A stretch of DNA of 64,000 nucleotides from Escherichia coli (GCF_024298765.1 NZ_CP101210.1); one strand, 5' to 3'. Counted from the first letter of the stretch, positions 1 through 64,000 are shown. Notes: generated from the letters alone by a model not told the origin. Numbers and translations are program-made.

Positions 1-209
1 CTAATGCTGGGGCGTTAAAAGCCGGGGGTATGGTGGCTTCAATGGATCAGGGCGGTTCTCCCATTACCTGGTTACTGATTCAGGTTTTCTCCCCGCAAAA
101 TATTCCCGGTTTCATTATTATCGGTGCAATTTATCTGACCGGTATTTTCATGACCTGGCGTAGAGCGCGTGGCTTTATTAAACAAGAGAAAGTCGTTCTC
201 GCAGAATAA
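1..209 (+). CDS. gatC: PTS galactitol-specific EIIC component, 3' end (partial, runs off window start)
   Basis: In-frame translation ...GALKAGGMVASMDQGGSPITWLLIQVFSPQNIPGFIIIGAIYLTGIFMTWRRARGFIKQEKVVLAE, stop TAA at 207-209; directly upstream of gatD as in the gat operon. Confidence 0.8.
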   Translation, partial: NAGALKAGGMVASMDQGGSPITWLLIQVFSPQNIPGFIIIGAIYLTGIFMTWRRARGFIKQEKVVLAE

Positions 210-256
210 TTTTTACCTGAGGGGGAGGTTATCCCCCTTAACAATCAGGAGTTTTT

Positions 257-1297
257 ATGAAATCAGTGGTGAATGATACTGATGGTATCGTGCGCGTTGC
301 AGAAAGCGTCATTCCTGAAATTAAACATCAGGATGAGGTGCGGGTAAAAATTGCCAGCTCGGGCTTATGTGGTTCCGATTTACCCAGGATATTTAAAAAT
401 GGTGCACATTATTATCCAATAACGTTAGGCCATGAATTTAGCGGCTATATTGATGCGGTGGGATCCGGTGTTGATGATTTACACCCTGGCGATGCGGTTG
501 CCTGTGTGCCGTTATTACCCTGTTTTACTTGTCCAGAGTGTCTGAAAGGGTTTTATTCCCAGTGCGCAAAATATGATTTTATTGGCTCGCGGCGTGATGG
601 TGGATTTGCTGAATATATTGTCGTTAAGCGAAAAAATGTCTTTGCTCTACCCACGGATATGCCTATTGAGGATGGGGCTTTTATTGAGCCGATTACCGTT
701 GGTCTGCATGCTTTTCATTTAGCGCAAGGTTGTGAGAATAAAAACGTTATTATTATTGGTGCCGGAACCATTGGCCTGCTGGCCATTCAGTGCGCTGTCG
801 CGCTGGGAGCAAAGAGTGTGACGGCGATCGACATTAGTTCAGAAAAACTGGCACTGGCAAAATCTTTCGGTGCGATGCAAACATTTAACAGTAGCGAAAT
901 GAGCGCGCCGCAAATGCAGAGCGTTTTACGCGAACTGCGCTTTAATCAGCTTATCCTCGAGACGGCTGGCGTACCGCAAACTGTCGAACTGGCGGTAGAG
1001 ATTGCCGGTCCTCATGCCCAACTGGCGCTGGTGGGCACGTTGCATCAGGATCTGCATTTAACATCGGCAACGTTTGGCAAAATATTGCGTAAAGAGCTGA
1101 CGGTTATCGGCAGTTGGATGAACTACTCCAGCCCTTGGCCGGGGCAGGAGTGGGAAACGGCGAGCCGGTTGCTGACAGAACGTAAGTTAAGCCTGGAGCC
1201 ATTAATCGCTCACCGTGGAAGCTTTGAAAGCTTCGCCCAGGCGGTGCGTGACATCGCTCGTAATGCTATGCCGGGCAAAGTGTTGCTCATTCCCTGA
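257..1297 (+). CDS. gatD: galactitol-1-phosphate 5-dehydrogenase (Zn-dependent alcohol dehydrogenase family)
   Basis: 346 aa ORF; MDR/Zn-ADH motifs (GHEFSG, cysteine cluster CxxCxxC, Rossmann GAGTIGL); gat operon context. Confidence 0.9.
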   Translation: MKSVVNDTDGIVRVAESVIPEIKHQDEVRVKIASSGLCGSDLPRIFKNGAHYYPITLGHEFSGYIDAVGSGVDDLHPGDAVACVPLLPCFTCPECLKGFYSQCAKYDFIGSRRDGGFAEYIVVKRKNVFALPTDMPIEDGAFIEPITVGLHAFHLAQGCENKNVIIIGAGTIGLLAIQCAVALGAKSVTAIDISSEKLALAKSFGAMQTFNSSEMSAPQMQSVLRELRFNQLILETAGVPQTVELAVEIAGPHAQLALVGTLHQDLHLTSATFGKILRKELTVIGSWMNYSSPWPGQEWETASRLLTERKLSLEPLIAHRGSFESFAQAVRDIARNAMPGKVLLIP

Positions 1298-1396
1298 AAC
1301 CGCGGGCCAGCGTGATGCTGGCCCGGTATTGTGCAAAACAGATCATTCACCAATGGTCCCCCTTCGTTTACACTAGCCACAATTGAATATGGGTAA

Positions 1397-2176
1397 ATGA
1401 CGATGAATTCATTCGAGCGAAGGAATAAGATCATCCAATTAGTGAATGAACAGGGAACCGTGCTTGTTCAGGATCTGGCGGGAGTATTTGCTGCCTCGGA
1501 AGCGACAATCCGTGCCGATTTGCGCTTTCTCGAACAAAAAGGCGTGGTTACGCGCTTTCATGGCGGTGCGGCGAAAATAATGTCTGGTAATAGTGAAACC
1601 GAGACCCAGGAAGTCGGGTTTAAAGAGCGATTTCAGCTCGCCAGCGCGCCAAAAAACAGAATAGCGCAGGCGGCAGTCAAAATGATCCACGAAGGGATGA
1701 CCGTTATTCTCGACAGCGGAAGTACGACAATGCTTATCGCCGAAGGATTAATGACCGCCAAAAATATCACGGTGATTACCAACAGTCTCCCGGCAGCGTT
1801 TGCCCTTTCCGAAAATAAAGACATTACTCTGGTCGTCTGTGGTGGCACGGTCCGCCATAAAACGCGCTCGATGCATGGTTCCATTGCCGAGCGTTCATTA
1901 CAGGATATTAATGCCGATTTAATGTTTGTCGGTGCTGATGGTATTGATGCGGTTAATGGTATTACGACCTTTAATGAAGGTTATTCTATTAGCGGTGCGA
2001 TGGTCACAGCCGCTAATAAAGTGATTGCCGTTCTCGATTCATCGAAATTTAACCGTCGCGGTTTTAATCAGGTACTACCAATCGAAAAAATTGACATTAT
2101 TATTACCGATGATGCTGTGTCAGAGGTGGATAAACTGGCATTGCAGAAGACGCGGGTAAAATTAATTACGGTGTAG
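1397..2176 (+). CDS. gatR: DeoR-family transcriptional repressor of the galactitol operon (intact)
   Basis: 259 aa ORF with N-terminal HTH and DeoR sugar-binding C-terminal domain; position after gatD. Confidence 0.85.
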   Translation: MTMNSFERRNKIIQLVNEQGTVLVQDLAGVFAASEATIRADLRFLEQKGVVTRFHGGAAKIMSGNSETETQEVGFKERFQLASAPKNRIAQAAVKMIHEGMTVILDSGSTTMLIAEGLMTAKNITVITNSLPAAFALSENKDITLVVCGGTVRHKTRSMHGSIAERSLQDINADLMFVGADGIDAVNGITTFNEGYSISGAMVTAANKVIAVLDSSKFNRRGFNQVLPIEKIDIIITDDAVSEVDKLALQKTRVKLITV

Positions 2177-2257
2177 TATTGTTCTGTATGCCGGATAAGG
2201 TGTTTACACCGCATCCGGCATTACGGATTCTCCCTGGTTCAAGAGAGAATAGTTTGA

Positions 2258-3157
2258 TTAACGCAACAGTGGACAATCTGGTGGTAATCGACAACGCAAC
2301 GCTGCCGGAAGTATTTCAATATGAAAATTTTGCCCACTCAACGGTTCGCCATCAAGATTAAAGGTGATGTCGTGTGGTGCCTGAATATCAAACCACGACG
2401 AAGCGCCTTCGATAATATTCGGGTTATCTTCGTCAGATTTTAAGGTTGATACGAGAGCCGGAAGTATTTCATCGCCGGTAAAAATGCGCAGTTGCAGCAA
2501 GCCATCGTTAATTAACGCGTTCGGACACAATTGCTGACCGCCACCGGCCTGACGCCCGTTACCAATACCAATGACCAGGGCGTCACCTTGCCAGTGAAAG
2601 TTTTCACCGCGGATTTCACAACGGTCCGGTTGCAGAGTATCCATACGCATTAAGCCATGAATGATGTAAGAGACGCTACCCAGCGCGGCTTTTAATTTTT
2701 CCGGCGTTTCTGTGGTAATACGCGTCCCAAATCCGCCTGTCGCCATATTAATAAAACAGGTTTGTTTGTTGACCTGCGCCATATCTATCGCAATGGCGTC
2801 ACCGGCAATTGCCAGTTTCAGCGCCTTATCCAGTGCCTCAGGAATCCCTACACTGGTGGCAAAATCATTGGCGGTTCCTAATGGCAAAATTCCCAGCGCG
2901 GGTATGTCATCCCCCTCACACTGAATCAACGCCGTAGAAACTTCATTAATGGTGCCATCGCCACCACCGGCAATCACCGTTGCGACGCCCAACTTCCGGG
3001 CCTCCTCTACATATCGTGCGGCATCGCCTTTCTCCCAGGTGACCCGCACATGGATCGTCATTCCTTCCTCACGCAACAGCATAATTGCTTCGCGCAAGGG
3101 TAGATTGTCAGTACTTTTGCCATTAAGAATCAGTAAGCTGGCGGGAAATTCTGCCAT
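2258..3157 (-). CDS. yegS: lipid kinase YegS (diacylglycerol kinase catalytic domain family)
   Basis: 299 aa; GGDGT motif ([13 protein letters not shown]); matches recalled YegS sequence. Confidence 0.9.
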
Positions 3158-3562
3158 GATCGTATGTGCCTTTATGATTGGTCTGTAGATAGTGTAGAGC
3201 AGAAAACAAAAGGTGGAGTCAGAACAGGATGAAAGTCGGAGGATAAAAAGTCAGTTCAAGTATGGAGGATTCAGTGGTTACCACCAGGAGCTTGCAATGG
3301 GGACAGCGAATACTAACGGCTGCCACCGATAAATTTCAAAAAAGAGCATATACCTAATATTCAACTAAACAGTGGCATCTTCAATATAATATATTAAAGC
3401 CCCCATGGAGTTACCCTGAAGGGCCTCAATGTCCGTAATTCCTACTTATGTAGGAAATGTTGTACAGAACATTTATTATAATCCTATTCAATTATAATAA
3501 TCATGCCATTATTATATTTAAACACTAGAGAGTGTCGTTGGTATTTAATGGGGGAAGGTGAG

Positions 3563-3880
3563 ATGAAAAAGATAGCTGCTATATCATTAATTAGTATTTT
3601 TATTATGTCTGGTTGTGCTGTGCATAATGATGAGACAAGTATCGGTAAATTTGGTCTTGCATATAAAAGTAATATTCAGCGTAAACTTGATAACCAATAC
3701 TACACCGAAGCCGAAGCTTCTTTAGCCAGGGGTAGAATATCTGGTGCAGAAAATATAGTAAAAAATGATGCAACTCATTTCTGTGTTACTCAGGGCAAAA
3801 AAATGCAAATAGTTGAGCTGAAGACAGAAGGTGTAGGATTACATGGTGTCGCTCGTCTGACATTCAAATGTGGAGAGTGA
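3563..3880 (+). CDS. yegR: small lipoprotein YegR (105 aa)
   Basis: Internal ATG at 3563 gives MKKIAAISLISIFIMSGC signal peptide with lipobox; AT-rich; the ORF-track start at 3503 is an upstream extension. Confidence 0.75.
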   Translation: MKKIAAISLISIFIMSGCAVHNDETSIGKFGLAYKSNIQRKLDNQYYTEAEASLARGRISGAENIVKNDATHFCVTQGKKMQIVELKTEGVGLHGVARLTFKCGE

Positions 3881-4037
3881 GAATATTTTTTGGTAAGCGT
3901 CAAATATGCGCGTTCTGGCTGTGCGTAGCCGGAACCTGTGGGAGCACGATGCCGATAAGTGAAAGGCATCGTGCTATGAAGGAGGATTCTATCGATGTGG
4001 TCAATGGAAGACGGTTACCAGAGATAGGGCTTATGCA

Positions 4038-4073
4038 TAAAAAAATAAGCCCGTGTAAGGGAGATTACACAGG
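4038..4073 (-). terminator. putative Rho-independent terminator downstream of yegQ
   Basis: Inverted repeat ccgtgtaa...ttacacagg (4050-4073) followed on the minus strand by a T-rich run (plus strand aaaaaaataag). Confidence 0.4.
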
Positions 4074-4210
4074 CTAAGGAGGTGGTTCCTGGTACAGCTA
4101 GCATTTTATGGGTTATGTTTTTCAGCGAAACGGATGATAACCTTAATAAATGCAGCTGTATGTGATCGGTTTCTAAGAATTTTCCATCCGGGAAAAATAA
4201 TCGAAATTAA

Positions 4211-5572
4211 TCACTTACCGTGTGGGTTACGCGTGGTTTCCCCGGAGAAATTACGCATCAGCAGAGCGTAATTGAGCTCAAGATCCTGCGGGACCGGGAG
4301 CCACACAGTATAACCATCGCCTGGTGCGACCGGCATCGCTTCACCTTTGGCGTTTTCCATGTGCTCAAGGGTAAAGTTAATGTTGCCTTGCGGCGTCATC
4401 AGCTCAAGGCTGTCGCCAACGGAGAATTTATTTTTCACCGCTACCGCCGCGAGGTCCCCCTTGCGCTCACCGGTAAACTCACCAACAAACTGCTGGCGGT
4501 CAGAAACTGAATAACCGTATTCGTAGTTCTGATAATCGTCGTGAGTATGACGACGCAGGAAACCTTCGGTATAGCCACGATGCGCCAGACCTTCCAGAGT
4601 TTCCAGCAGGCTGGTATCGAACGGTTTGCCCGCAGCGGCGTCATCGATAGCTTTACGGTAAACCTGTGCGGTGCGTGCGCAATAGTAGAAAGATTTAGTA
4701 CGGCCTTCGATTTTCAGCGAATGCACGCCCATTTTGGTCAGGCGTTCTACATGGGCGATGGCGCGCAGATCTTTCGAGTTCATGATGTAAGTGCCGTGCT
4801 CATCTTCAAACGCGGTCATATACTCGCCCGGACGCTGGGCTTCTTCGATCATAAACACTTTGTCGGTTGGCGCGCCGATACCCAGCGTCGGCTCAACATT
4901 TTGCACCGGAATCGGCTCGTACTTGTGTACGATGTTGCCAACGTCATCTTCTTTCCCTTCCTGGACGTTGTACTCCCAGCGGCAGGCGTTGGTGCAGGTA
5001 CCCTGGTTCGGATCGCGCTTGTTGATATAGCCAGAGAGCAGGCAGCGACCGGAGTAGGCCATGCACAGTGCGCCGTGAACGAAGATCTCGATCTCCATAT
5101 CCGGCACCTGATTGCGGATCTCTTCAATCTCTTCCAGCGACAGCTCGCGAGAGAGGATCACGCGGGTCAGGCCCATTTGCTGCCAGAATTTCACCGTCGC
5201 CCAGTTTACGGCGTTAGCCTGCACCGAGAGGTGGATCGGCATTTCAGGGAAGTGCTCACGCACCAGCATAATCAGCCCTGGATCGGACATAATCAGCGCA
5301 TCCGGCCCCATTTCCACCACCGGTTTCAGGTCACGGATAAAGGTTTTCAGCTTGGCGTTGTGCGGTGCAATGTTGACCACGACATAAAACTTTTTCCCCA
5401 GCGCGTGGGCTTCATTGATGCCGAGCTGAAGATTTTCGTGGTTGAATTCGTTGTTGCGCACACGCAGGGAGTAACGCGGCTGGCCCGCATAAACAGCATC
5501 TGCGCCATAAGCGAAAGCGTAACGCATATTTTTCAGCGTTCCCGCCGGGGAAAGGAGTTCCGGTTTAAACAT
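4211..5572 (-). CDS. yegQ: peptidase U32 family protein YegQ
   Basis: 453 aa ORF; matches recalled YegQ (collagenase-like U32 peptidase family). Confidence 0.85.
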   Translation of the reverse strand: MFKPELLSPAGTLKNMRYAFAYGADAVYAGQPRYSLRVRNNEFNHENLQLGINEAHALGKKFYVVVNIAPHNAKLKTFIRDLKPVVEMGPDALIMSDPGLIMLVREHFPEMPIHLSVQANAVNWATVKFWQQMGLTRVILSRELSLEEIEEIRNQVPDMEIEIFVHGALCMAYSGRCLLSGYINKRDPNQGTCTNACRWEYNVQEGKEDDVGNIVHKYEPIPVQNVEPTLGIGAPTDKVFMIEEAQRPGEYMTAFEDEHGTYIMNSKDLRAIAHVERLTKMGVHSLKIEGRTKSFYYCARTAQVYRKAIDDAAAGKPFDTSLLETLEGLAHRGYTEGFLRRHTHDDYQNYEYGYSVSDRQQFVGEFTGERKGDLAAVAVKNKFSVGDSLELMTPQGNINFTLEHMENAKGEAMPVAPGDGYTVWLPVPQDLELNYALLMRNFSGETTRNPHGK

Positions 5573-5718
5573 AATTCTCTCGTTCTGATGACAGGTCAGA
5601 TCCGCTTCACCTGATGAAGCGGTTAGGGGAGTGCCCCCACTTTAAGGGCGGGCATTGTAGCGCTGTGGGGGGATCTGGTAAAGCGCCGGACGCCAACAAC
5701 CCACGCCCGGCATCGTAA

Positions 5719-6051
5719 TTACGTATTGTCTTTCACCGTCTGGCTTGTGCCATTGGCTTTAACGGAGGCAATCCCGGTTTCACGAGATTGCGCGGTGGCG
5801 TACATCTGGCTGGAGCCGATAATTTGATGATTAGCGGCTTTCAGATTGAAATAGAATTTGCCGTTACTTGCCGTTTTTTTCTCATAGCGTTCTTCTTGCG
5901 GGCTGTTGCTACGCACCGACGCGATGCCCTTTTCCGCAGAGGCTTTTGAGGTATAAAGCTCGCTGGTGAGGATAGTCTCACCATTGCCCGCTTTTAGCAC
6001 AAACCGGAACTGATTATCACTGCTCTTACTGAGTTCAAACCAACCAGCCAT
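5719..6051 (-). CDS. yegP: UPF0339 family protein YegP (tandem DUF1508 repeats)
   Basis: Two internal repeats (KAGNGETILTSELYTSKASAEKGIASV / KAANHQIIGSSQMYATAQSRETGIASV); 110 aa from the internal Met. Confidence 0.75.
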   Translation of the reverse strand: MAGWFELSKSSDNQFRFVLKAGNGETILTSELYTSKASAEKGIASVRSNSPQEERYEKKTASNGKFYFNLKAANHQIIGSSQMYATAQSRETGIASVKANGTSQTVKDNT

Positions 6052-6241
6052 AATGACTCCTTGATTGAAATTGTGTATCGAAAACAGCATCTAAAGGTGC
6101 TGTTTACCGATTAAAGTATGAGCGATTTTCTGATGCCTGCCAGGGCGGAGAGATAATGTCAGTTTGCTGACCATGCGTGGGATAATGTTGCCGGATCTGG
6201 TCTGAACGCCATCTCCGGCTAACAAAATAATGTCGCTAAAA

Positions 6242-6964
6242 CTAAACGATGCGGCAGGCGTCGGCTTCCCAGCGGTAACCGACGCCATAAACGGCGCGGA
6301 TAAATGACTGTTCGGCGTCGAGAGATTCCAGCTTGCGGCGCAGGTTTTTAATGTGGCTGTCGATGGTGCGGTCGGTTACTACGCGGTAGTCGTCATAAAG
6401 ATGATTGAGCAATTGCTCGCGGGAGAACACTTTTCCTGGTTCGTGAGAGAGCGTTTTCAGCAGACGAAATTCCGCAGGCGTCAGGTCAAGCATTTTACCG
6501 CGCCATGAAGCCTGAAAACGACCTTCGTCGATAATCAACGGGCTTTCAGCATCCTGTTGCTGCAACTCGCGCTGCGGTTTGCAACGGCGCAAAATGGTTT
6601 TGACGCGCGCTACCACTTCCCGTGGGCTGTACGGCTTACAGATATAATCATCTGCGCCAATCTCCAGCCCCAGCAGGCGATCGATCTCTTCGATTTTTGC
6701 CGTCACCATCACGATCGGAATGTCAGAAAAACGACGAATTTCCCGGCACAGCGTCAGGCCATCGGTGCCAGGGAGCATCAGATCTAACAGGATCAGATCC
6801 GGTGGTGTCTGGCGCACATACGGCAGTACCTGATCGCCGTGGCTGATAAGCGTCGGCGCATAGCTCGCAGCACGCAGATAATCAATGAGCAACTGCCCCA
6901 GCTTCGGTTCATCTTCCACGATCAAAATACGCGGTGTGTTTTCGTCGATTGGTAACTCGGTCAT
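6242..6964 (-). CDS. baeR: two-component response regulator BaeR (OmpR family)
   Basis: 240 aa; receiver domain (ILIVEDEP...[11 protein letters not shown]) plus winged-helix C-terminus; overlaps baeS stop. Confidence 0.9.
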
Positions 6965-8364
6965 ACTTCTCTCTGTAAATCCCGTTCCAGCGGTAACTCT
7001 ACTGTAATGCTTACCCCGCCAAAAGGCGAATGGGCAGCAATAATGCGACCATTATGTGCTTCAACAATGTTCAGGCAAATCGCCAGCCCCAGCCCGGAAC
7101 CGCCGCTGGCACGGTTGCGGGAACCTTCGGTGCGATAAAAACGTTCAAACAATTTTTGTAGCTGATCGTCACTGACACCTGGCGCACTGTCGGCAAAGGT
7201 CAGTCGCACCGTTTTGTCGCGCTGCCCGGCAGAGATTTGCAGGCTGCCGCCGCTGTCAGTGTAGCGCAGGCTGTTTTCCAGTAAGTTATTGAATAACTGC
7301 ATTAAACGGTCGCGATCGCCAAATACGGTAATACTGTCTGGCAGGGAAAATTGCAGTTTCAGGCCACGACTGGCGAATCGTTCGCGAAATGCGCCGCCCG
7401 CCACTTCCAGCAGTGGGATCAAATCTACCGGTGCTTTTTGATAGGCGAGAGCGCCTTCATCAGACATCGACAACTGATGGAGATCGTCAACCAGTTTGGT
7501 CAGTGTACCGACCTCCGCCTGTAAAGACGCCACCGTCTCCGGCGTGAATTTACGCACGCCATCCTGAATGGCTTCCAGTTCACCGCGCAGCACCGCTAAT
7601 GGCGTACGCAGTTCGTGAGAAATATCGGCCATAAAATCGCGCCGCATTTGCTGGTTTTTCTCCAGTGTGCTGGCAAGCTGGTTGAAGTCTTGCGCCAGTT
7701 TGCCCAGTTCATCTTCACTGGTGGGCGTTACGCGGGTAGTGAAATCGCCCGCCGCCAGTTTGTGCGTGCCATCGACAAGTCGTTTTACCGGTGCCAGTAA
7801 ACCGCGCGCCAGCAGAAAAGTGGCAAGTGCCGCGAGTAACGTTGCCAGGGCGACAATCAACCAGCTGGTTTGCCGCTGTTGTTTATCGAAATTGATATCA
7901 GTATTGCGCGTTAACCGCTCAACGGGGGAGGCGATCACCGCGCCCACTTCCGCACCGTTGACCAGAATGGGTCGCCGTGTACCGTCAGGTGGAATCGGCG
8001 CTCGTGGACCAACCAGCACTTTGTTGTTTTGATCAACCACCCAGAACTGGGTACGCCAGCCGTGCGGTGGCATACCCGGGCCGGGTTTATCTTCCGAATT
8101 ATCGTGTTCAAATGAACGCAGGATCTGAAAGACAAAGCGATCATTGTTGCGCAGGAAGCGCCAGTTGCCATGCTGCGCATACTGCTCGCCAAGCGCATCA
8201 CTTAACAGTTGTAATCGCTGTTCATTACCATGCTTGATGTAATCAATAAAGCCACGCTCAAAACTGATACGCACCGCCCAGTGCATACTGATCAGCAAGA
8301 CAATGCAGGTGGCGAAAATCGCCAGAAACAGTTTGCCGGTAATACCAGGTCGCCAGAACTTCAT
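6961..8364 (-). CDS. baeS: envelope-stress sensor histidine kinase BaeS
   Basis: 467 aa; two TM segments, HAMP, H-box ([11 protein letters not shown]), ATPase G-boxes. Confidence 0.9.
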
Positions 8365-9776
8365 TGCGCGCTCCTTTTTCGCCGCGAAATAGCTACATTT
8401 TGATGCGTATCGTTCGGCACTCTGGCAAAGATGAACGCCGGAAGGGCGATGATAAACGCCATGCTAAGCCAGGTGTACATAAAGACGGTTTGTGTGGTGC
8501 CGCTGTCGACGCTGACATGCTGCGAACCAAAAAGTCCCAGCAACAGCCCGGCGATGGTGACGCCGATACTCATCGACAATTGCATAATCATCGACAGCAG
8601 GCTGTTTCCGCTGCTCGCCAGATTGTCCGGGAGATCTTTCAGCGTCAGGGTGTTCATGGAGGAGAAACGCGTCGAGTTGACCATCCCTTGTAAAAACAGG
8701 ACGAACGGCAAAACGTAGTACCAGCCCAGCAGAGCGGTAGTCATAAACAACAGGGTGACCAGCGACAGACCCAGCGTGGTCGCTACCAGTACCCGACGAT
8801 AACCAAAGCGATTCACCACCTGTACCACAATTCGCTTCATTCCCATGCTGCCAAGCACCATCGGGATCATCATCAGTCCGGCATGAAACGGCGAGAAACC
8901 GAGGCCAATTTGCAGGAAAACCGGTGTCATAAAGGGCAACATGCCACTGCCAATACGTCCGGCAAAGCTCCCCGCCAGGCCCAGCGAAAAGGTACGAGTA
9001 CGGAACAGTTTCAGACTGAACAGGGCACGGTTGTTATTTCTGGCGTGCAGCAGATAAAGCACCAGTGCCACCACGCCAACTGCGACCAGGCCTGCAATCG
9101 TCAGCGGCGATAAACCTGTACCTTTACTGCCGTCCAGCGCCAGGGTTAATACCGCCATGCCAACCGCCAGCAATAAAAATCCGGAGAGATCAAAGCGCCG
9201 CGTCTGCATGGTGTAGTTTGGCATTAACAGCAATGTGGCGATCGCACCGATAATCCCCACCGGAATGTTGATCAAAAAGATACAGTGCCACGATGCGTAC
9301 TCCACCAGCAGACCGCCGAGCGCCGGACCGAGCAGCGGACCGACCTGACCGGGTAACGTGACAAAGGTCATCGCCGCCATATATTGCTCGCGCGGTACGA
9401 TTTTCATCACCGTCAATCTGCCGACCGGCACCATCATCGCGCCGCCAACGCCCTGTAACGCGCGTGCCAGCAACAGTTCGTTCAGCGTGCCGGAAAGCGC
9501 GCAAAACAGTGAACCGAGAGTAAACAGCACGATGGCGGTAAAGAAAATATTGCGCACGCCGACTTTGTCCGCCAGCCAGCCGCTGGCGGGCAGCATCACC
9601 GCCACGGTCAGCACATAAGAGACAATGACCATGTGCATATGCAACGGACTTTCCCCGAGGCTTTGCGCCATTGAGGGAAGGGCGGTGTTTACGATGGTGG
9701 TGTCCAGCGACTGCATAAAGAAGCCGAAAGCCACAATCCACAATTGCCAACGGGTGCTGTCGGGAAGATCTGTCAT
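8361..9776 (-). CDS. mdtD: MFS transporter MdtD
   Basis: 471 aa, 14-TM MFS-like; position between mdtC and baeS. Confidence 0.9.
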
Positions 9777-15977: not shown

Positions 15978-17224
15978 CAGGAGAGTGCTCCTTTTTTCGC
16001 GTATTCGCGGCTGGTGGCTTTCTCTTCCGGAGTAGTGGCGCTCTGGGCTTCCACCACTTCCACTTTCGCCCCTTCGGTCAGGCGATCAATGCCGTCTGTC
16101 ACCACGCGATCGCCCGCAGAAATACCTGCACGGATCACCACTTTCTGACTGTCCTGAATGCCCGGCGTCACCAGATGTTTGCTGACCTTGTTTTCGCTAT
16201 TCAGCACCCAGACAAAATGGCCTTCATTGCCCATTTGCAGGGCGGCTGTTGGGATCACTACGGCGTTTTGTTCGGTGTCGACTAACATGCGCGCGTTAAC
16301 AAACTGATTGGGAAACAGCGCATCATCCTGATTATTAAAGCGTGCTTTCACTTTAATCGTACCGGTAGTGGCATCGATTTGGTTATCTAGACTTAACAGC
16401 GTGCCTTCACTTAATTTCTTCGAGTTGGTGCGATCCCAGGCTTCTACCACCAGCGGTTTTCCGGCTTTCTGCGCCTGCACTACGGTAGCGATATCGCTTT
16501 CCGGCAGGGTAAAGACTAAATCGATAGGATGCGTCTGGGTGATCACCACGATCCCGGTGGTATCACCACTGGAGATTTGGTTACCAACATCAACCTGCTT
16601 GAGACCAACGCGACCATCGACTGGTGCGGTAATCCGGCTCCAGTCGAGTTGCAGCTGCGCGCTGGCAACGCTTGCTTCATCAGCCTTAATGGTGCCTTCG
16701 GTTTCACTGACCAGCGCCTGTTGGGCATCCAGCTCCTGGCGGGAAACGAGATTGGTTTTTGCCAGTTGTTGATAACGCGCCAGGTCACGGCGGGCGTTGG
16801 CAAGCGTGGCTTTATCTTTTGCCAGTTGGCCCTGGGCTTGTGCTAATGCAACTTTGAACTGGCTGGGGTCAATTTCTGCCAGTAAATCGCCTGCTTTGAC
16901 CTGCTGGCCTTCCTGGAAATGTAACGCTATCAGTTGGCCGTCCACGCGGCTGCGCACCGTAACGGTATTAGCGGCGGTAATGGTGCCAAGCCCGGTGAGG
17001 TAACGCGGAACTGCCTGTTCTACGGCGGTCGCCGCCTGAACCGGGGCTAATGGGCCGGAACGCATACCACGTCGACCACCCGCTGGCGATTGCTGCGCTT
17101 GTTTCGTCGCCCCTGGGGCTGCACTCCGGGAGTCATTGCGGCCTTGCCAGAACCAGAATGCGGCGATGGCGGCGATAACCACCACGATTACGATTACCCA
17201 ACGGGATTTATAACTACCTTTCAT
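15977..17224 (-). CDS. mdtA: RND efflux membrane-fusion (periplasmic adaptor) protein MdtA
   Basis: 415 aa from internal Met ([16 protein letters not shown]...); the ORF-track start at 17371 is an upstream extension. Confidence 0.85.
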
Positions 17225-17277
17225 CGTTAAGAGTTTCTCTTCCTGAAACGTTTCGCGGAATGATACTAGTGTAGCCA

Positions 17278-17295
17278 GCCAATAAGGGAGAAAAA
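17278..17295 (-). promoter_or_regulatory. putative BaeR-binding box upstream of mdtA
   Basis: Minus-strand sequence TTTTTCTCCCTTATTGGC resembles the recalled BaeR consensus TTTTTCTCCATDATTGGC; about 55 bp upstream of the mdtA start. Confidence 0.5.
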
Positions 17296-17454
17296 TGGAG
17301 GAATTATGAAACACTGTCGGGAATCGTCTGAATGACGGGCACATTTGCGAGCACGCATCCAGTAATAACACAGGAAACTATTTTATCTACGCGTTAGCGA
17401 TAGACTGCTTGCATGGCGAAAGGAGGTAAGCCGCAGATTTCAGCCGGATGCTGA

Positions 17455-17600
17455 AACGGGAAAGCCCCTCCCGAGGAAGGGGCCTTAAATAAGGAAAGGG
17501 TCATGATGAAGCTACTCATCATCGTGGTGCTCTTAGTCATAAGCTTCCCCGCTTACTAAGACTACCAGGGCGGGGGAAACCCCGCTCTACCCTCACTCCT
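17455..17600 (-). ncRNA. putative Sib-type antisense sRNA (antitoxin of the ibs type I TA pair), copy 1; ends approximate
   Basis: Overlaps the small ibs ORF on the opposite strand; minus-strand hairpin GCCCCTTCCTCGGGAGGGGC (17464-17483) followed by a T-rich tract; part of a ~326-bp tandem repeat. Confidence 0.45.
17503..17559 (+). CDS. Ibs-family type I toxin, 18 aa hydrophobic peptide (MMKLLIIVVLLVISFPAY)
   Basis: Short ORF with RBS (aaggaaaggg) read directly from the sequence; absent from the ORF track; matches the Ibs toxin family. Confidence 0.7.
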   Translation: MMKLLIIVVLLVISFPAY

Positions 17601-17847
17601 GAAAGTATGCCTTCACGATAAGATTGTCAATCCGCAGGCTTTGTAGTCTGCGATCCTGCCAGCAAATATTCTTTGCGAGTCGTTACGCAATAATCACAGA
17701 GGAAACTATTTTATTCACGCGTTAGCGATAGACTGCATTCAGGGCGAAAGGAGGTAAGCCGATGATTTCAGCGGGACGCTGAAACGGGAAAGCCTCTCCC
17801 TGTACTGCACCCATTTTGTTGGACGATGAAATGGAATAGCCCCTAAT

Positions 17848-18369
17848 ATGTCAAAGCCAAAATACCCTTTTGAAAAGCGCCTTGAAGTCGTGAATCACTA
17901 CTTCACAACTGATGATGGTTACAGGATCATCTCGGCACGTTTTGGTGTCCCCCGAACCCAGGTCAGGACATGGGTTGCCCTCTATGAAAAACATGGAGAA
18001 AAAGGTTTAATTCCCAAACCTAAAGGCGTTAGTGCTGATCCAGAGTTGCGTATTAAGGTCGTGAAAGCTGTGATCGAGCAGCACATGTCCCTTAATCAGG
18101 CTGCTGCTCACTTTATGCTTGCTGGTAGTGGTTCTGTAGCCAGGTGGCTGAAGGTCTATGAAGAGCGCGGAGAAGCTGGTTTACGCGCGCTCAAGATTGG
18201 CACCAAAAGAAACATTGCAATATCAGTTGATCCAGAAAAAGCGGCATCAGCATTGGAGCTGTCAAAAGACCGACGCATTGAGGATCTTGAAAGGCAAGTT
18301 CGATTTCTTGAAACGCGGCTTGTGTATCTAAAAAAGCTGAAAGCCTTAGCTCATCCCACGAAAAAGTGA
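17848..18369 (+). CDS. insJ: IS150 OrfA (HTH transposase N-terminal protein, 173 aa)
   Basis: 173 aa with HTH; ends at slippery A AAA AAG (18359-18364), the -1 frameshift site to orfB. Confidence 0.85.
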   Translation: MSKPKYPFEKRLEVVNHYFTTDDGYRIISARFGVPRTQVRTWVALYEKHGEKGLIPKPKGVSADPELRIKVVKAVIEQHMSLNQAAAHFMLAGSGSVARWLKVYEERGEAGLRALKIGTKRNIAISVDPEKAASALELSKDRRIEDLERQVRFLETRLVYLKKLKALAHPTKK

Positions 18370-19217
18370 AAGTACTCAACGAGCTAAGGCAGTTTTATCC
18401 TCTTGATGAGCTTCTCAGGGCTGCGGAGATACCGCGCAGTACGTTTTATTACCATCTAAAGGCTCTCAGCAAGCCTGACAAGTATGCGGACGTTAAAAAG
18501 CGTATTGGTGAGATTTATCATGAGAATAGAGGCCGATACGGATACCGTAGGGTAACGCTGTCTCTTCATCGAGAAGGGAAACAGATTAACCATAAAGCTG
18601 TTCAGCGCCTGATGGGAATCCTCTCACTGAAGGCAGCGATTAAGGTCAAGCGATACCGCTCTTACAGAGGAGAGGTAGGGCAAACCGCCCCCAATGTTCT
18701 CCAAAGAGATTTCAAGGCTACGCGGCCAAACGAGAAGTGGGTTACCGATGTTACTGAATTTGCAGTCAATGGGCGCAAGCTGTATTTGTCTCCAGTAATA
18801 GATCTCTTCAACAACGAAGTTATTTCTTACAGCCTTTCGGAAAGACCAGTGATGAACATGGTCGAGAATATGCTCGATCAGGCATTCAAAAAGCTTAATC
18901 CTCACGAGCATCCTGTTCTGCACTCTGACCAGGGATGGCAGTATCGTATGAGAAGATATCAAAATATCCTTAAAGAACATGGTATTAAACAAAGCATGTC
19001 CAGAAAAGGCAATTGTCTGGATAATGCTGTGGTGGAGTGTTTCTTTGGAACCTTAAAGTCGGAGTGTTTTTATCTTGATGAGTTCAGTAATATAAGCGAG
19101 CTGAAGGATGCTGTTACGGAATATATTGAATACTACAACAGCAGAAGAATTAGCCTGAAATTAAAAGGTCTGACTCCAATTGAATATCGGAATCAGACCT
19201 ATATGCCTCGTGTTTAA
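18366..19217 (+). CDS. insK: IS150 OrfB (DDE transposase catalytic domain, 283 aa)
   Basis: 283 aa with DDE integrase-core motifs ([25 protein letters not shown]). Confidence 0.85.
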
Positions 19218-19277
19218 CTGTCCAACTTTTTGGGGTCAGTACACCCGGAGAAGAGGGCTTTTAATAAGGAAAGGGTT

Positions 19278-19337
19278 ATGATGAAGCACGTCATCATACT
19301 GGTGATACTCTTAGTGATTAGCTTCCAGGCTTACTAA
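19278..19337 (+). CDS. Ibs-family type I toxin, 19 aa (MMKHVIILVILLVISFQAY), copy 2
   Basis: Short ORF with RBS immediately past the IS150 right end; paralogue of the peptide at 17503. Confidence 0.65.
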   Translation: MMKHVIILVILLVISFQAY

Positions 19338-19557
19338 GAACACCAGGGGGAGGGGGAAACCTCTCCCTAACCCTCACTCCTGAAATTATGTCACTCCGCC
19401 CTTAGTGTCAATCGACGGCTCTCCGTTCTTGCGAGGCGAATAGCAAAATTTTCTGCGCCGCCGGGCCTAATTCTGAAAGTTTCTTCGTTTGTTCTTATTT
19501 CATTATTGCAGTCGGTATGATACCGGACCTCAATAATTCTCTAAGAAAGGATTTCTT

Positions 19558-21039: not shown

Positions 21040-21501
21040 TTAGCGAACTAATTTTGCTCTAAGCTCGTCGGCTTCTTCTTTTGGATAGGTGACCAATAAA
21101 GGATCAATGGTATAACCGCCGTAAATTTTATCCCCGCGCGTATACATCCAGTCTGAAATATCTTCTTTCTTGATTTTCCACTCCTGGCCATATTCTACGT
21201 TTGTAACAATACCAGGGTCATTGCTGATTACGCCAATAAACATGCCGTTAGAATAAGTGACATCCGTGAGCCAGAAATGCTCGGTTCTTCCGTGATCGGT
21301 TATCGGGGCTTTGACTGCGAAAGTATCGGCATCTTTTTTATTCATAACCTCGATGAATTTATCGGTTTCTTTCCGCGCATGTTTAATCGCGTCAGACATC
21401 GCTTGTTTATCATAACCTTCTGTCACTAACGTATCCGAAACTTCACTAAAGCCCGCGGTAGTAAAAAATAGCAGGCTCAACATGAGTAATATCTTTTTCA
21501 T
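21040..21501 (-). CDS. yegJ: secreted/periplasmic protein YegJ (DUF2314-like)
   Basis: 153 aa with N-terminal signal peptide MKKILLMLSLLFFTTAGFS. Confidence 0.75.
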   Translation of the reverse strand: MKKILLMLSLLFFTTAGFSEVSDTLVTEGYDKQAMSDAIKHARKETDKFIEVMNKKDADTFAVKAPITDHGRTEHFWLTDVTYSNGMFIGVISNDPGIVTNVEYGQEWKIKKEDISDWMYTRGDKIYGGYTIDPLLVTYPKEEADELRAKLVR

Positions 21502-21535: not shown

Positions 21536-22730
<1,195 letters not shown>

Positions 22731-36360: not shown

Positions 36361-36399
36361 TCAGTGTATTGGTAGCTAAAAAGCCAGGGGCGGTAGCGT
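36361..36399 (+). promoter_or_regulatory. JUMPstart element with ops (RfaH-recruiting) site in the wza leader
   Basis: 39-bp cagtgtattggtagctaaaaagccaggggcggtagcgtg; ops GGCGGTAGCGTG at 36388-36399. Confidence 0.85.
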
Positions 36400-36578
36400 G
36401 TCTGGATGCCTGAAAGACCAGTCTGAATTATTCTGTCAATAGCCTGCGGATGAAATCAATTTTTTTAGGACTGATGCCAGTTAAATTTGTATTCAATTAA
36501 CTGCAAGGTAAATGTGCATGGCGACATTGCTATTAATAGTGCACAGGATAATTACTCTGCCAAAGTGATAAATAAACA

Positions 36579-59489: not shown

Positions 59490-59646
59490 ATTTGCGACCA
59501 TTCATAAACTTACTGGATATAATGTTCTAAAAGATTATAATCCTCACACTAACTGTTAAAGCTGGGGCTGGGCAGCATTGACTACTCAGGGAAGGTACTC
59601 ATCTTTATCTTGTGTTTCTTACGTAACAACCAGACTAAAGTGATTT

Positions 59647-60642
59647 ATGAACGATAACGTTTTGCTCATAGGAGCTTCCGGATTCGTAGGAACCCGACTA
59701 CTTGAAACGGCAATTGCTGACTTTAATATCAAGAACCTGGACAAACAGCAGAGCCACTTTTATCCAGAAATCACACAGATTGGCGATGTTCGCGATCAAC
59801 AGGCACTCGACCAGGCATTAGTTGGTTTTGACACTGTTGTACTACTGGCAGCGGAACACCGCGATGACGTCAGCCCTACTTCTCTCTATTATGATGTCAA
59901 CGTTCAGGGTACCCGCAATGTGCTGGCGGCCATGGAAAAAAATGGCGTTAAAAATATCATCTTTACCAGTTCCGTTGCTGTTTATGGTTTGAACAAACAT
60001 AACCCTGACGAAAACCATCCACACGACCCTTTCAACCACTACGGCAAAAGTAAGTGGCAGGCAGAGGAAGTGCTGCGTGAATGGTATAACAAAGCACCAA
60101 CAGAACGTTCATTAACCATCATCCGTCCTACCGTTATCTTCGGTGAACGCAACCGCGGTAACGTCTATAACTTGCTGAAACAGATCGCTGGCGGCAAGTT
60201 TATGATGGTGGGCGCAGGGACTAACTATAAGTCCATGGCTTATGTTGGAAACATTGTTGAGTTTATCAAGTACAAACTGAAGAATGTTGCCGCAGGTTAT
60301 GAGGTTTATAACTACGTTGATAAGCCAGACCTGAACATGAACCAGTTGGTTGCTGAAGTTGAACAAAGTCTGAACAAAAAGATCCCTTCTATGCACTTGC
60401 CTTACCCACTAGGAATGCTGGGTGGATATTGCTTTGATATCCTGAGCAAAATTACGGGCAAAAAATACGCTGTCAGCTCTGTGCGCGTGAAAAAGTTCTG
60501 CGCAACTACACAGTTTGACGCAACGAAAGTGCATTCGTCAGGTTTTGTTGCACCGTATACGCTGTCGCAAGGTCTGGATCGAACTCTGCAGTATGAATTC
60601 GTCCATGCCAAAAAAGACGACATAACGTTTGTTTCTGAGTAA
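59647..60642 (+). CDS. NAD-dependent epimerase/dehydratase-family protein, Gnu/Z3206-like (GlcNAc-P-P-undecaprenol 4-epimerase-like)
   Basis: 331 aa; extended-SDR motifs (LLIGASGFVG, YGKSK); sits between wcaM and galF as I recall for Z3206 in O157-type loci. Confidence 0.65.
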   Translation: MNDNVLLIGASGFVGTRLLETAIADFNIKNLDKQQSHFYPEITQIGDVRDQQALDQALVGFDTVVLLAAEHRDDVSPTSLYYDVNVQGTRNVLAAMEKNGVKNIIFTSSVAVYGLNKHNPDENHPHDPFNHYGKSKWQAEEVLREWYNKAPTERSLTIIRPTVIFGERNRGNVYNLLKQIAGGKFMMVGAGTNYKSMAYVGNIVEFIKYKLKNVAAGYEVYNYVDKPDLNMNQLVAEVEQSLNKKIPSMHLPYPLGMLGGYCFDILSKITGKKYAVSSVRVKKFCATTQFDATKVHSSGFVAPYTLSQGLDRTLQYEFVHAKKDDITFVSE

Positions 60643-60884
60643 TGCAGACGAGTCAGAGAAAAAAGGACTAGGTTGGACTACGATTATTCGGAAAGAGGTA
60701 CTGATTAAATTATCAGTATGTGGATTTCCGAGTAATCCGAGTAACCCAGATGCTGATGGTGTGTAGTGTTATCGTAAGGTTTAAGCAAAGTTATGCGGAA
60801 CTAAGCTTTGGTATATAGCCATAACGTTTGGCTAACCTATGGCAATAATTTACGCACTATCAGCCACTTAGAGGTAGGAAAAGA

Positions 60885-61778
60885 ATGACGAATTTAAAAG
60901 CAGTTATACCGGTAGCAGGTCTTGGGATGCATATGTTGCCTGCCACTAAGGCGATTCCCAAAGAGATGCTACCGATCGTCGACAAGCCAATGATTCAGTA
61001 CATTGTTGACGAGATTGTGGCTGCAGGGATCAAAGAAATCCTCCTGGTAACTCATGCGTCCAAGAACGCGGTCGAAAACCACTTCGACACCTCTTATGAA
61101 TTAGAATCTCTCCTTGAACAGCGCGTGAAGCGTCAGCTGCTGGCGGAAGTGCAGTCCATCTGTCCGCCTGGCGTGACCATTATGAACGTGCGTCAGGGTG
61201 AACCTTTAGGTTTGGGCCACTCCATTTTATGTGCACGACCCGCCATTGGTGACAACCCATTTGTCGTGGTGCTGCCAGACGTTGTGATCGATGACGCCAG
61301 CGCCGACCCGCTGCGCTACAACCTTGCTGCCATGATTGCGCGCTTCAACGAAACGGGCCGCAGCCAGGTGCTGGCAAAACGTATGCCGGGTGACCTCTCT
61401 GAATACTCCGTCATTCAGACCAAAGAACCGCTGGACCGTGAAGGCAAAGTCAGCCGCATTGTTGAATTTATCGAAAAACCGGATCAGCCGCAGACGCTGG
61501 ACTCAGACATCATGGCCGTAGGTCGTTATGTGCTTTCTGCTGATATTTGGCCGGAACTGGAACGTACTCAGCCTGGTGCATGGGGGCGTATTCAGCTTAC
61601 TGATGCTATTGCCGAACTGGCGAAAAAACAGTCCGTTGATGCCATGCTGATGACTGGAGACAGCTACGACTGCGGTAAAAAAATGGGCTATATGCAGGCG
61701 TTTGTGAAGTATGGGCTGCGCAACCTGAAAGAAGGGGCGAAGTTCCGCAAAGGTATTGAGAAGGTGTTAAGTGAATAA
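60885..61778 (+). CDS. galF: UTP-glucose-1-phosphate uridylyltransferase subunit GalF
   Basis: 297 aa; matches recalled GalF ([43 protein letters not shown]...). Confidence 0.95.
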
Positions 61779-62011
61779 AAATTGATCATCCATATATGGT
61801 GGATTGAATAAAAATAGAACTGCAGTGAACATTCAAAAGAAAAGATGATTACGTTATAAGAATGTTCCTGTCTTTTATTGAAAGTATTTAATAACAATAA
61901 GTTACAGCATGTATCGCTCGTACATAGATTTTCCTTGTATTTGACTTCGTTTGATTAGACTATTGGAAAATAGTGAAAAGTATTAAATAATTAGTACCTA
62001 TGATTCATTTT

Positions 62012-62050
62012 CAGTGAGTTGGTAACTGTTAAGCCAAGGGCGGTAGCGTG
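62012..62050 (+). promoter_or_regulatory. JUMPstart element with ops site (O-antigen operon leader)
   Basis: 39-bp cagtgagttggtaactgttaagccaagggcggtagcgtg; ops GGCGGTAGCGTG at 62039-62050. Confidence 0.85.
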
Positions 62051-62085
62051 TGTTTTGATCCTACCCACGTAATATGGACACAGGC

Positions 62086-62841
62086 CTAAGCGAGGTTCTG
62101 GTTTTCAAATTGTTCCGGACTGAGGCCGCCACACCAACTGTGCCGCCGCCACCGATTGTAATCACATTCGATATAATTAAACACCGTTGCCCGCATTATT
62201 TCCCGGCTGATAAAGTGTTCTCCATGGATACATTCCACTTTCAGCGAATGAAAGAAGCTTTCCACGCAGGCATTATCGTAGCAGCAACCTTTTGCGCTCA
62301 TACTTCCACGCAGATTATGCCGCTTCAGTTGCGCCGTCATGCGTGGCGACATTGACCAGCCAATAACGGCACGTGACCACAGGTCAATGACCACTGCCAG
62401 ATACAGCCAGCCTTCATCTGTACGTAAGTACGTGATGTCTCCTGCCCACTTCTGGTTCGGGCCACTGGCGTAAAAATCCTGCTCCAACAGATTTTCTGAC
62501 ACAGGCAGGCCGTGTGCGCGGTAGCTGACCGGGCTGAACTTCCGGGAGGCCTTTGCCCTCAGTCCCTGACGGCGCAGGCTTGCCGCCACGGTTTTTACGT
62601 TAAAGGGGTAACCCTGAGCACGCAGTTCATCCGTCAGGCGTGGGGCACCGTAACGCTGTTTTGACCGGGTAAAAGCCGCGAGGACAACGCTGTCGCAGTG
62701 TTGGCGGAACTGCTGACGCGTGCTTATCCTTGTCCGCCGCTGACACCACGTATACCAGCCGCTGCGGGCCACCCGGAGCACGCGGCACATTGCTTTGATG
62801 CTGAACTCAGCCTGATGTTTTTCAATAAAGACATACTTCAT
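62086..62841 (-). pseudogene. insF: IS3 OrfB transposase with ~37-aa internal deletion
   Basis: 251 aa against ~288 expected; reads ...[20 protein letters not shown]..., missing the block that I recall contains HTDRGGQY. Confidence 0.65.
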
Positions 62842-63137
62842 TTCAGGCGCTTCGCGAAGTATGTCGCGGCCTTTTGGAGGATAGCCAGCTCTTCATCCCG
62901 TTCTGCCAGCTGGCGTTTGAGACGTGCAATCTCGGTAGACATCTCCAGTTCACGTTCAGAAGACGTCTGCTGATTTTGCTGTTTACTGCGCCAGTTGTAG
63001 AGCTGTGATTCATACAGGCTGAGTTCACGGGCTGCGGCAGTAACACCGATGCGTTCAGCAAGCTTCAGGGCTTCACTGCGAAATTCAGGCGAATGCTGTT
63101 TACGGGGTTTTTTACTGGTTGATACTGTTTTTGTCAT
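62838..63137 (-). CDS. insE: IS3 OrfA (HTH protein, 99 aa)
   Basis: [32 protein letters not shown]... matches recalled IS3 OrfA. Confidence 0.85.
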
Positions 63138-63237
63138 GTGAGTCACCTCTGACTGAGAGTTTACTCACTTAGCCGCGTGTCCACTATTGCTGGGTAAGAT
63201 CATTTTTCTCTCAATCCTCATGATAAAGGAGGTTTAT

Positions 63238-64000
63238 ATGGTGATTTTCGTAACAGGCGGTGCAGGATATATTGGATCCCATACCATACTTGAGTTACTT
63301 AATAATGGTCATGATGCCGTTTCGATAGATAATTTTGCCAATTCCTCTATAGAATCATTAAAAAGAGTAGAGCAAATAACTAATAAGAAAATTATTTCTT
63401 ATCAAGGTGATATCCGTGATAAAAATCTACTTGATGAGATTTTTTCAAGACATCATATCGATGCTGTAATTCATTTTGCATCGTTAAAATCTGTAGGTGA
63501 GTCAAAGTTAAAGCCCTTAGAGTATTATTCTAATAATGTTGGTGGAACTTTAGTATTACTTGAATGCATGAAGAGATATAACATTAATAAAATGATATTT
63601 AGCTCTTCTGCTACTGTTTATGGGAATAACAGTATCCCTCCCCATACGGAAGATAGACGAATTGGTGAAACTACAAACCCATATGGGACATCGAAGTTTA
63701 TAATAGAAATGATTTTGAGTGATTATTGTGATAGCGATAATAATAAATCAGTAATTGCACTACGTTATTTTAATCCAATCGGAGCACATAAGTCCGGGAT
63801 GATTGGTGAAAATCCTAACGGGATTCCTAATAATCTGGTTCCTTATATATCTAAAGTTGCACAAAATCAACTTCCTGTATTAAATATTTATGGCAACGAT
63901 TATCCAACTAAAGATGGTACAGGAGTAAGAGACTATATACATGTCTGTGATTTGGCTAAAGGGCATGTTAAAGCATTAGAATATATGTTTTTAAATGATG
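63238..64000 (+). CDS. gne: UDP-sugar 4-epimerase (GalE/Gne family), first gene of an AT-rich O-antigen cluster; 3' end beyond the window
   Basis: Translation MVIFVTGGAGYIGSHTILELL...YGTSK...; GxxGxxG and YxxxK SDR motifs; RBS aaaggagg; visibly AT-rich. Confidence 0.8.
   Translation, partial: MVIFVTGGAGYIGSHTILELLNNGHDAVSIDNFANSSIESLKRVEQITNKKIISYQGDIRDKNLLDEIFSRHHIDAVIHFASLKSVGESKLKPLEYYSNNVGGTLVLLECMKRYNINKMIFSSSATVYGNNSIPPHTEDRRIGETTNPYGTSKFIIEMILSDYCDSDNNKSVIALRYFNPIGAHKSGMIGENPNGIPNNLVPYISKVAQNQLPVLNIYGNDYPTKDGTGVRDYIHVCDLAKGHVKALEYMFLND

Follow-up and report, generated by a model that had tools for sequence, protein, structure and literature searches.

An IS3 copy with an internal deletion lies between the ops element and gne, the first gene of an Escherichia coli O128 O-antigen cluster

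We analyzed a 64,000-nucleotide stretch of Escherichia coli DNA (NZ_CP101210.1 of assembly GCF_024298765.1; the whole stretch is called the window and is numbered from its first letter), near the end of which a copy of the insertion sequence (IS) IS3 occupies the leader of an O128 O-antigen gene cluster. The region opens with galF (60885-61778, plus strand), an open reading frame (ORF) of 297 amino acids that is the conserved gene upstream of the O-antigen cluster and is annotated galF in strains LHM10-1 and CP52E. Downstream of it lie a candidate sigma-70 promoter (TTGGAA-17-AATAAT, 61963-61991, plus strand), recognized by consensus match only and placed about 20 bp upstream of JUMPstart; the JUMPstart element itself (62012-62050, plus strand); and, within JUMPstart, the ops element GGCGGTAGCGTG (62039-62050, plus strand), the loading and pause site of RfaH. 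IS3 follows at 62056-63202, with its transposase on the minus strand, antisense to the O-antigen operon. The first gene of the cluster, gne (called galE by PGAP), starts at 63238 on the plus strand and continues past the end of the window at 64000. An initial annotation had given the same coordinates for JUMPstart, ops, IS3 and the gne start, and they proved exact when the sequence was read; its placement of an IS3 with minus-strand genes between JUMPstart/ops and the first O-antigen gene also stands, both ORFs being found on that strand.

The JUMPstart matches the Rfam JUMPstart model RF01707 over its full length (positions 1-38 of the 38 in the model) with 52.5 bits, the gathering score being 35, and the uninterrupted site of strain S1 receives an equal score. 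Because of the full-length match and the identical score in S1, the JUMPstart of the window is judged to be a complete element. It lies between galF and gne, as it does in relatives with an empty site. All 12 positions of ops agree with the consensus GGCGGTAGnnTG, which is matched exactly at 62039-62050, and the 12-mer has two matches in the window compared with 0.08 expected by chance. Bases 3-8 of ops are required for RfaH recruitment, and T11 and G12 for pausing (PMC5995543); all of the bases required for RfaH binding and pausing are kept. The gap between ops and the IS consists of the five bases TGTTT (62051-62055), and the six bases 3' of ops are the same as in the uninterrupted sequence. 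The rfaH gene lies outside the window, and RfaH action at this ops is predicted from the ops sequence and the literature. On the other side of the IS, 35 bases (63203-63237) separate its end from the gne ATG, and they include a Shine-Dalgarno AGGAGG (63227-63232, plus strand) read from the sequence 5 nt before the start codon. A second full-length JUMPstart with ops, uninterrupted, is present at 36362-36400 of the window (57.3 bits), where synteny with LHM10-1 places it upstream of wza in the colanic acid cluster.

The inserted element is bounded by imperfect inverted repeats of 39 nt that start with 5'-TG, as expected of IS3. The right repeat (IRR, 62056-62094, minus strand) adjoins ops, and the left repeat (IRL, 63164-63202, minus strand; an exact match where none is expected by chance) adjoins gne. 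On both sides the IS is flanked by the TTT of a 3-bp target-site duplication (62053-62055 and 63203-63205), which is also characteristic of IS3. Two genes lie between the repeats: orfA (62838-63137, minus strand) is an intact ORF of 99 amino acids with an HTH_Tnp_1 domain, and it overlaps the transposase catalytic-domain gene orfB (62086-62841, minus strand, truncated as described below), to which it is joined by an A4G programmed -1 frameshift motif (62871-62875, minus strand) of the kind found in IS3, named as in PMC8860574. The element is 99.4-100% identical to copies annotated as 'IS3-like element IS3 family transposase' in thousands of E. coli genomes, and public annotations already name it IS3. 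There is no further IS3 copy in the window.

What the initial annotation had missed is that this copy is 1147 bp long, compared with 1258 bp for the full element. Two complete genomes, LHM10-1 from a pig in China and CP52E from a human in Thailand, are 99.9% identical to 61700-64000 but 111 bp longer, the surplus lying inside orfB between two copies of CAGTTGCGCC. These 10-bp repeats are 111 bp apart, start to start, in full-length IS3; the window keeps a single one (62326-62335), which marks the deletion junction on comparison with the full-length element. The reading frame is kept across the deletion, and OrfB has 251 amino acids in place of 288. Full-length OrfB has D135, D195 and E231 with DD(35)E spacing, and the deletion takes out residues 173-209, including D195, the second catalytic aspartate in the HTDRG motif, while D135 and E231 stay. 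The window copy accordingly has neither the complete DD(35)E triad nor the 1258 bp of an autonomous IS3. It is a defective, non-autonomous derivative whose own enzyme cannot transpose or excise it, because the deletion removed D195. The A4G motif and both IS3 ends are intact like orfA, and apart from the deletion the copy is identical to the full-length copies at the O128 site and to standard IS3 copies.

The exact 251-residue OrfB is also found at unrelated loci (L006, L007, L008, L011, L012, L013, L014 and L015), the neighbors of which include hlyCA, fec genes, traT and an autotransporter. At several of these loci the DNA is 100% identical to the window copy, and the copy in L013 has its own GTC duplication. 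The repeated occurrence of the 111-bp deletion reflects either recurrent slippage between the 10-bp repeats or the spread of a defective IS3 mobilized in trans.

The IS3 in the O128 leader is a genuine insertion. In the comparison that the initial annotation had suggested, related genomes prove to have an empty site: the flanks joined through one TTT (1151 bp) are matched without gaps in 110 complete genomes. The six T that it had written into that site are in fact five, the actual sequence being gcgtgtgTTTTTctctcaatcc, which is what both S1 and the typed O128:H27 strain 90-9281 read at the insertion point. The closest empty sites, in O90/O127 strains such as S1, are 99.6% identical, and that of 90-9281 shows 97.9% identity. 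We consider it extremely improbable that the arrangement is an artefact, whether of an IS placed by misassembly at a repeat or of independent insertions at a hotspot rather than one event. IS3 is indeed multicopy, with matches in 4916 of 5426 complete E. coli genomes, and short-read assemblies often break at it, as do contigs L024-L026 and L036, which end within the IS and have the same IRL junction. However, misassembly, named by the initial annotation as a finding that would overturn its view, is contradicted by the same junctions in two complete genomes and at least 10 further assemblies; the two closed genomes and several long contigs cross both junctions identically, the 3-bp duplication is proper, and the rebuilt empty site is exact. 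As for a hotspot, the flanks of the carriers are at most 1 mismatch apart in 1151 bp, compared with at least 5 to any empty site, and the sole other IS found in the region, an IS1 within gne of strain CH4796, is at a different position. A hotspot origin was rejected on the flanking haplotypes that the carriers have in common. Because the flanks of the carriers are nearer to each other than to any empty site, the comparison argues for one insertion event that was then inherited.

The position, orientation and duplication of the IS are identical in LHM10-1, CP52E and the contigs L009, L010 and L017-L023. Among the assemblies with the insertion are GCA_036697505.1, GCA_036697495.1, GCA_033695855.1, GCA_958314575.1, GCA_974490335.1, GCA_044153765.1, GCA_033802325.1, GCA_019367625.1, GCA_041094695.1 and GCA_023334805.1. 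The truncated OrfB, looked up exactly, led to the same locus in the draft GCA_050027535.1, whose contig ends in gmd and agrees with the window at 100% identity over 11.9 kb, and in the run DRR388483; the deleted IS3 was found at the O128 site in no complete RefSeq E. coli genome. The linked gne protein, also looked up exactly, gave 152 index blocks. Among the ten places listed for this gne allele, all seven that reach upstream have IS3 at the same junctions, and the remaining three start inside the IS with the same IRL junction; L036, a fourth contig that starts inside the IS, was found through a wzx look-up. Complete genomes with the O128 wzx number 22, and the insertion is present in two of them.

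The insertion is found on three left-flank haplotypes: that of the window, another that also has the deleted IS, and that of LHM10-1, in which the IS is full length. The window and LHM10-1 diverge by 2-4% over most of 5.7-59.5 kb, and there are three base differences only in the sequence that they share in 60750-64000. Because the latter segment is near-identical while the former differs by 2-4%, the insertion-bearing 5' end of the cluster must have been moved by recombination, and it is present on at least three backgrounds. The inserted IS3 has a small genealogy of its own, made up of two single-nucleotide polymorphisms and the deletion. On one branch, which includes the window, deletion between the two 10-bp repeats removed 111 bp of orfB, and this would have locked IS3 in place.

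A recombination boundary lies at about 59500-60750, where divergence from LHM10-1 falls from about 4% (wcaK-wcaM) to about 0.1% from galF on, and a third haplotype (L017 and L022) differs at 60312-60669. Further upstream, an IS150-like element at 17848-19217, absent from LHM10-1, lies between Sib RNA genes at 17488-17630 and 19263-19411. An IS5-like transposase ORF (21604-22584) is also absent from LHM10-1 and adjoins an ORF of 153 amino acids with a hydrophobic N-terminus (21040-21501).

The window stops inside gne, and a contig of the same lineage (L009) reaches 1.4 kb further. The 2221 bp between the IS end and the end of that contig match the O128 cluster of LHM10-1 with 100% identity. When the LHM10-1 cluster is compared with that of typed O128:H27, 29 substitutions separate them over 14686 bp, and there are no gaps. 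In the IS3-bearing clusters of L033-L035 none of the 14 ORFs is shortened, and all genes are likewise full length in every examined IS3-bearing O128 cluster that reaches the distal end. The IS neither interrupts nor deletes an O-unit gene: it is intergenic, and the gne start downstream of it is intact. In several IS3-free O128 clusters (L028, L029 and L031; ~2992-4007) the first glycosyltransferase is split into ORFs of 217 and 118 (or 105) amino acids, and in IS3-bearing clusters it is whole (338 amino acids). The O128 cluster of L001 is flanked by galE/gne-type epimerase genes (16650-17669 and 30239-31258). In L016 (strain CH4796, 1888-3684) the IS1 lies inside the gne of a related cluster and splits the gene.

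No terminator-like hairpin was found on either strand in 61700-63400. A consensus scan likewise found no plus-strand promoter-like site inside IS3, at the IS-flank junction or in the 35-bp flank, and when the last 100 bp of the IS and this flank were read by eye, only hexamer matches of 2-4 out of 6 with poor spacing were seen. The sole promoter-like site rightly placed for the operon is the one at 61963-61991, upstream of JUMPstart. In plus-strand RNA from 62110-62470 the ratio of C to G ranges from 1.05 to 1.85 and exceeds 1.2 in most intervals, which is rut-like. IS3 has been termed a mobile promoter (PMC8860574, citing Charlier et al. 1982), and its strong outward promoter, P3R, points the same way as the transposase gene (PMC8860574, Fig. 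1B legend). The initial annotation had allowed for compensation by an outward-reading promoter of the IS. P3R cannot provide it: because the transposase is on the minus strand and IRR abuts ops, P3R would read leftwards from IRR, towards galF and away from gne. In reporter work, wild-type 150-bp IS3 ends had no detectable promoter activity on either strand, and a reporter signal was absent when promoters lay deeper than 150 bp in an IS3-family backbone (PMC12095673). A C63190T variant in IRL is present in two carrier assemblies (L024/L035 and L026). It was considered as a new -10 box of an outward promoter and rejected, the hybrid TTGAGA (flank)-17-AACAAT reading on the minus strand into the transposase.

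With regard to expression of the cluster, we favor, at about even odds, the proposition that O128 expression is attenuated, rather than abolished, with the operon transcribed by read-through of the IS. Operon transcripts from the native promoter would have to cross 1147 nt of IS3 antisense RNA. Because JUMPstart and ops are intact and upstream, RNA polymerase is predicted to enter the IS already modified by RfaH, and it would then be Rho-resistant with no intrinsic terminator ahead. RfaH stays on RNA polymerase from ops to the operon end and excludes NusG; it essentially abrogates Rho polarity, and rfb expression is raised about 300-fold (PMC5449661). Consistent with such read-through, hlyA is still transcribed in hly plasmids with IS2, or IS1 and IS2, between ops and hlyC (PMC2918590). 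The O128 expression that remains would be more strictly RfaH-dependent than in strains with an uninterrupted site, and IS3 might act as a built-in attenuator, giving lower O128 expression or stronger RfaH dependence. We put forward only tentatively the proposal that IS3 is tolerated as RfaH, loaded 5 bp upstream, takes polymerase through more than 1.1 kb of foreign DNA that has no gene on the transcribed strand.

Several points weigh against attenuation by read-through. The anti-Rho effect of RfaH works partly via coupling to translation, and about 1.15 kb of IS has no gene on the transcribed strand. Over the first ~400 nt of plus-strand IS RNA, C exceeds G in a rut-like manner, and the IS3 transposase promoter and P3R oppose operon transcription. 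The intactness of the downstream genes is weak evidence for function, the haplotypes of the carriers being very young (zero to a few substitutions per kb). Rough strains are frequent in nature, so the spread of the allele is no proof of expression. In a reporter test, no expression could be detected from promoters placed deeper than 150 bp in an IS3-family backbone (PMC12095673).

The main rival is the polar null of the initial annotation, in which transcripts end inside the IS, the O128 genes are effectively silent and the strain is rough; we regard this as somewhat improbable while taking it seriously. IS insertions are classically polar, and transcripts could be stopped by the action of Rho on untranslated RNA, by collision with polymerases that transcribe the transposase gene or by OrfA sitting at the IS ends. 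The rival draws on the lack of a gene on the transcribed strand of the 1147-nt insert, the excess of C over G in the first ~400 nt of its RNA and transposase transcription that converges on the operon, and also on the scan that found no plus-strand promoter-like site in the IS or at its junction, together with the inactivity of 150-bp IS3 ends and the silence of deeper promoters in the IS3-family backbone (PMC12095673). On the other hand, an intact ops upstream should let the polymerase pick up RfaH, by which Rho polarity is abrogated (PMC5449661), intrinsic terminators were not found in 61700-63400, and hly plasmids keep transcription with an IS between ops and operon (PMC2918590). The allele is moreover present on three backgrounds and in at least 12 assemblies, with no O128 ORF disrupted; the split glycosyltransferase, by contrast, belongs to some IS3-free clusters. 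The inference of polarity and rough lipopolysaccharide in the initial annotation was overstated. Quite unlikely, in our estimate, is a replacement of the promoter, in which gne is driven by a promoter within the IS, or by a hybrid promoter formed where IRL meets the flank, free of the native promoter and of RfaH. The naming of IS3 as a mobile promoter with a strong outward P3R (PMC8860574) speaks for it, as do the richness of IS3-family ends in proto-promoters (PMC12095673) and the two hotspots on the outward strand of the IS3 left end, where one mutation yields a -10 box (PMC12095673, Table 1). But P3R faces galF and not gne, the consensus scan gave no plus-strand site in the IS or the 35-bp flank, and wild-type 150-bp ends are inactive on both strands (PMC12095673). 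The window copy, identical to standard IS3 but for the deletion, has no promoter-creating mutation, and the C63190T variant of relatives makes an inward-facing site. A transcript begun downstream of ops would also lack RfaH, and polarity would be expected over the ~15-kb operon.

The closest relative of the O128 IS3 allele is the ops-IS2-hlyC arrangement of hly plasmids, of which pHly152, pEO11 and pEO12 (IS2) and pEO853 (IS1 and IS2) have an IS between hlyR(ops) and hlyC. In both systems the allele is natural and heritable and has an IS of ~1.3 kb placed after ops and before the first gene of an operon that depends on RfaH; IS-free versions exist too. They differ in that hly is a toxin operon borne on plasmids, in which several hundred bp separate IS2 from ops, whereas the O128 cluster is chromosomal with IS3 only 5 bp after ops. 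For hly, expression was measured, although the authors did not separate read-through from IS-borne promoters.

Better-known cases of IS damage to O-antigen synthesis are the rfb-50 allele of K-12 (IS5 in wbbL), the B strain (IS1) and O157 O-rough (IS629 in gne). As in these rough types, the IS is in the galF-gnd region and O-antigen loss is possible. However, the K-12, B and O157 insertions hit or delete coding sequence in strains proven rough, and the O128 IS3 lies in an untranslated leader with the ORFs intact. The parallel with laboratory E. coli drawn in the initial annotation thus holds as far as an IS in the O-antigen region at a different site, and is loose in that no coding sequence is interrupted; the direct analogue of coding-sequence damage is the IS1 inside gne of CH4796. 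Compared with IS3 acting as a mobile promoter, the same element stands immediately upstream of a gene, but in reverse orientation, with its right end facing ops and galF, which is not the arrangement for activation by P3R. More broadly, IS elements in O-antigen clusters are known agents of gene inactivation and diversification (PMC7685785, PMC4732683, PMC4384082). The O62 and O68 clusters are near-identical and differ only by an IS, a case whose effects on serology have been discussed (PMC4384082, PMC4732683), and the OX38 and O128 reference clusters (KJ739599, AY217096) are 98-99.9% identical (PMC4732683).

While IS elements in O-antigen clusters are well known, our literature searches on O128 with IS3 and on JUMPstart with insertion sequences found no published description of the O128-leader allele, nor did we find in the literature a phenotype for LHM10-1. 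In practice, the insertion lengthens amplicons made with JUMPstart primers by 1.15-1.26 kb, and it is a breakpoint of short-read assemblies a little before gne, where many contigs 2-5 kb long begin inside the IS. If O128 is not made, a sizeable set of in-silico O128 isolates would actually be rough, with consequences for predicting serotypes from genomes. If it is made after all, the allele would warn against taking a nearby IS alone as the sign of a rough strain, and would offer a natural test of how far RfaH protection extends over inserted DNA whose transcribed strand carries no gene. Should tolerance through RfaH prove true, this widespread allele of the O128 leader would show, naturally and on the chromosome, that ops/RfaH anti-polarity can work across an insertion sequence.

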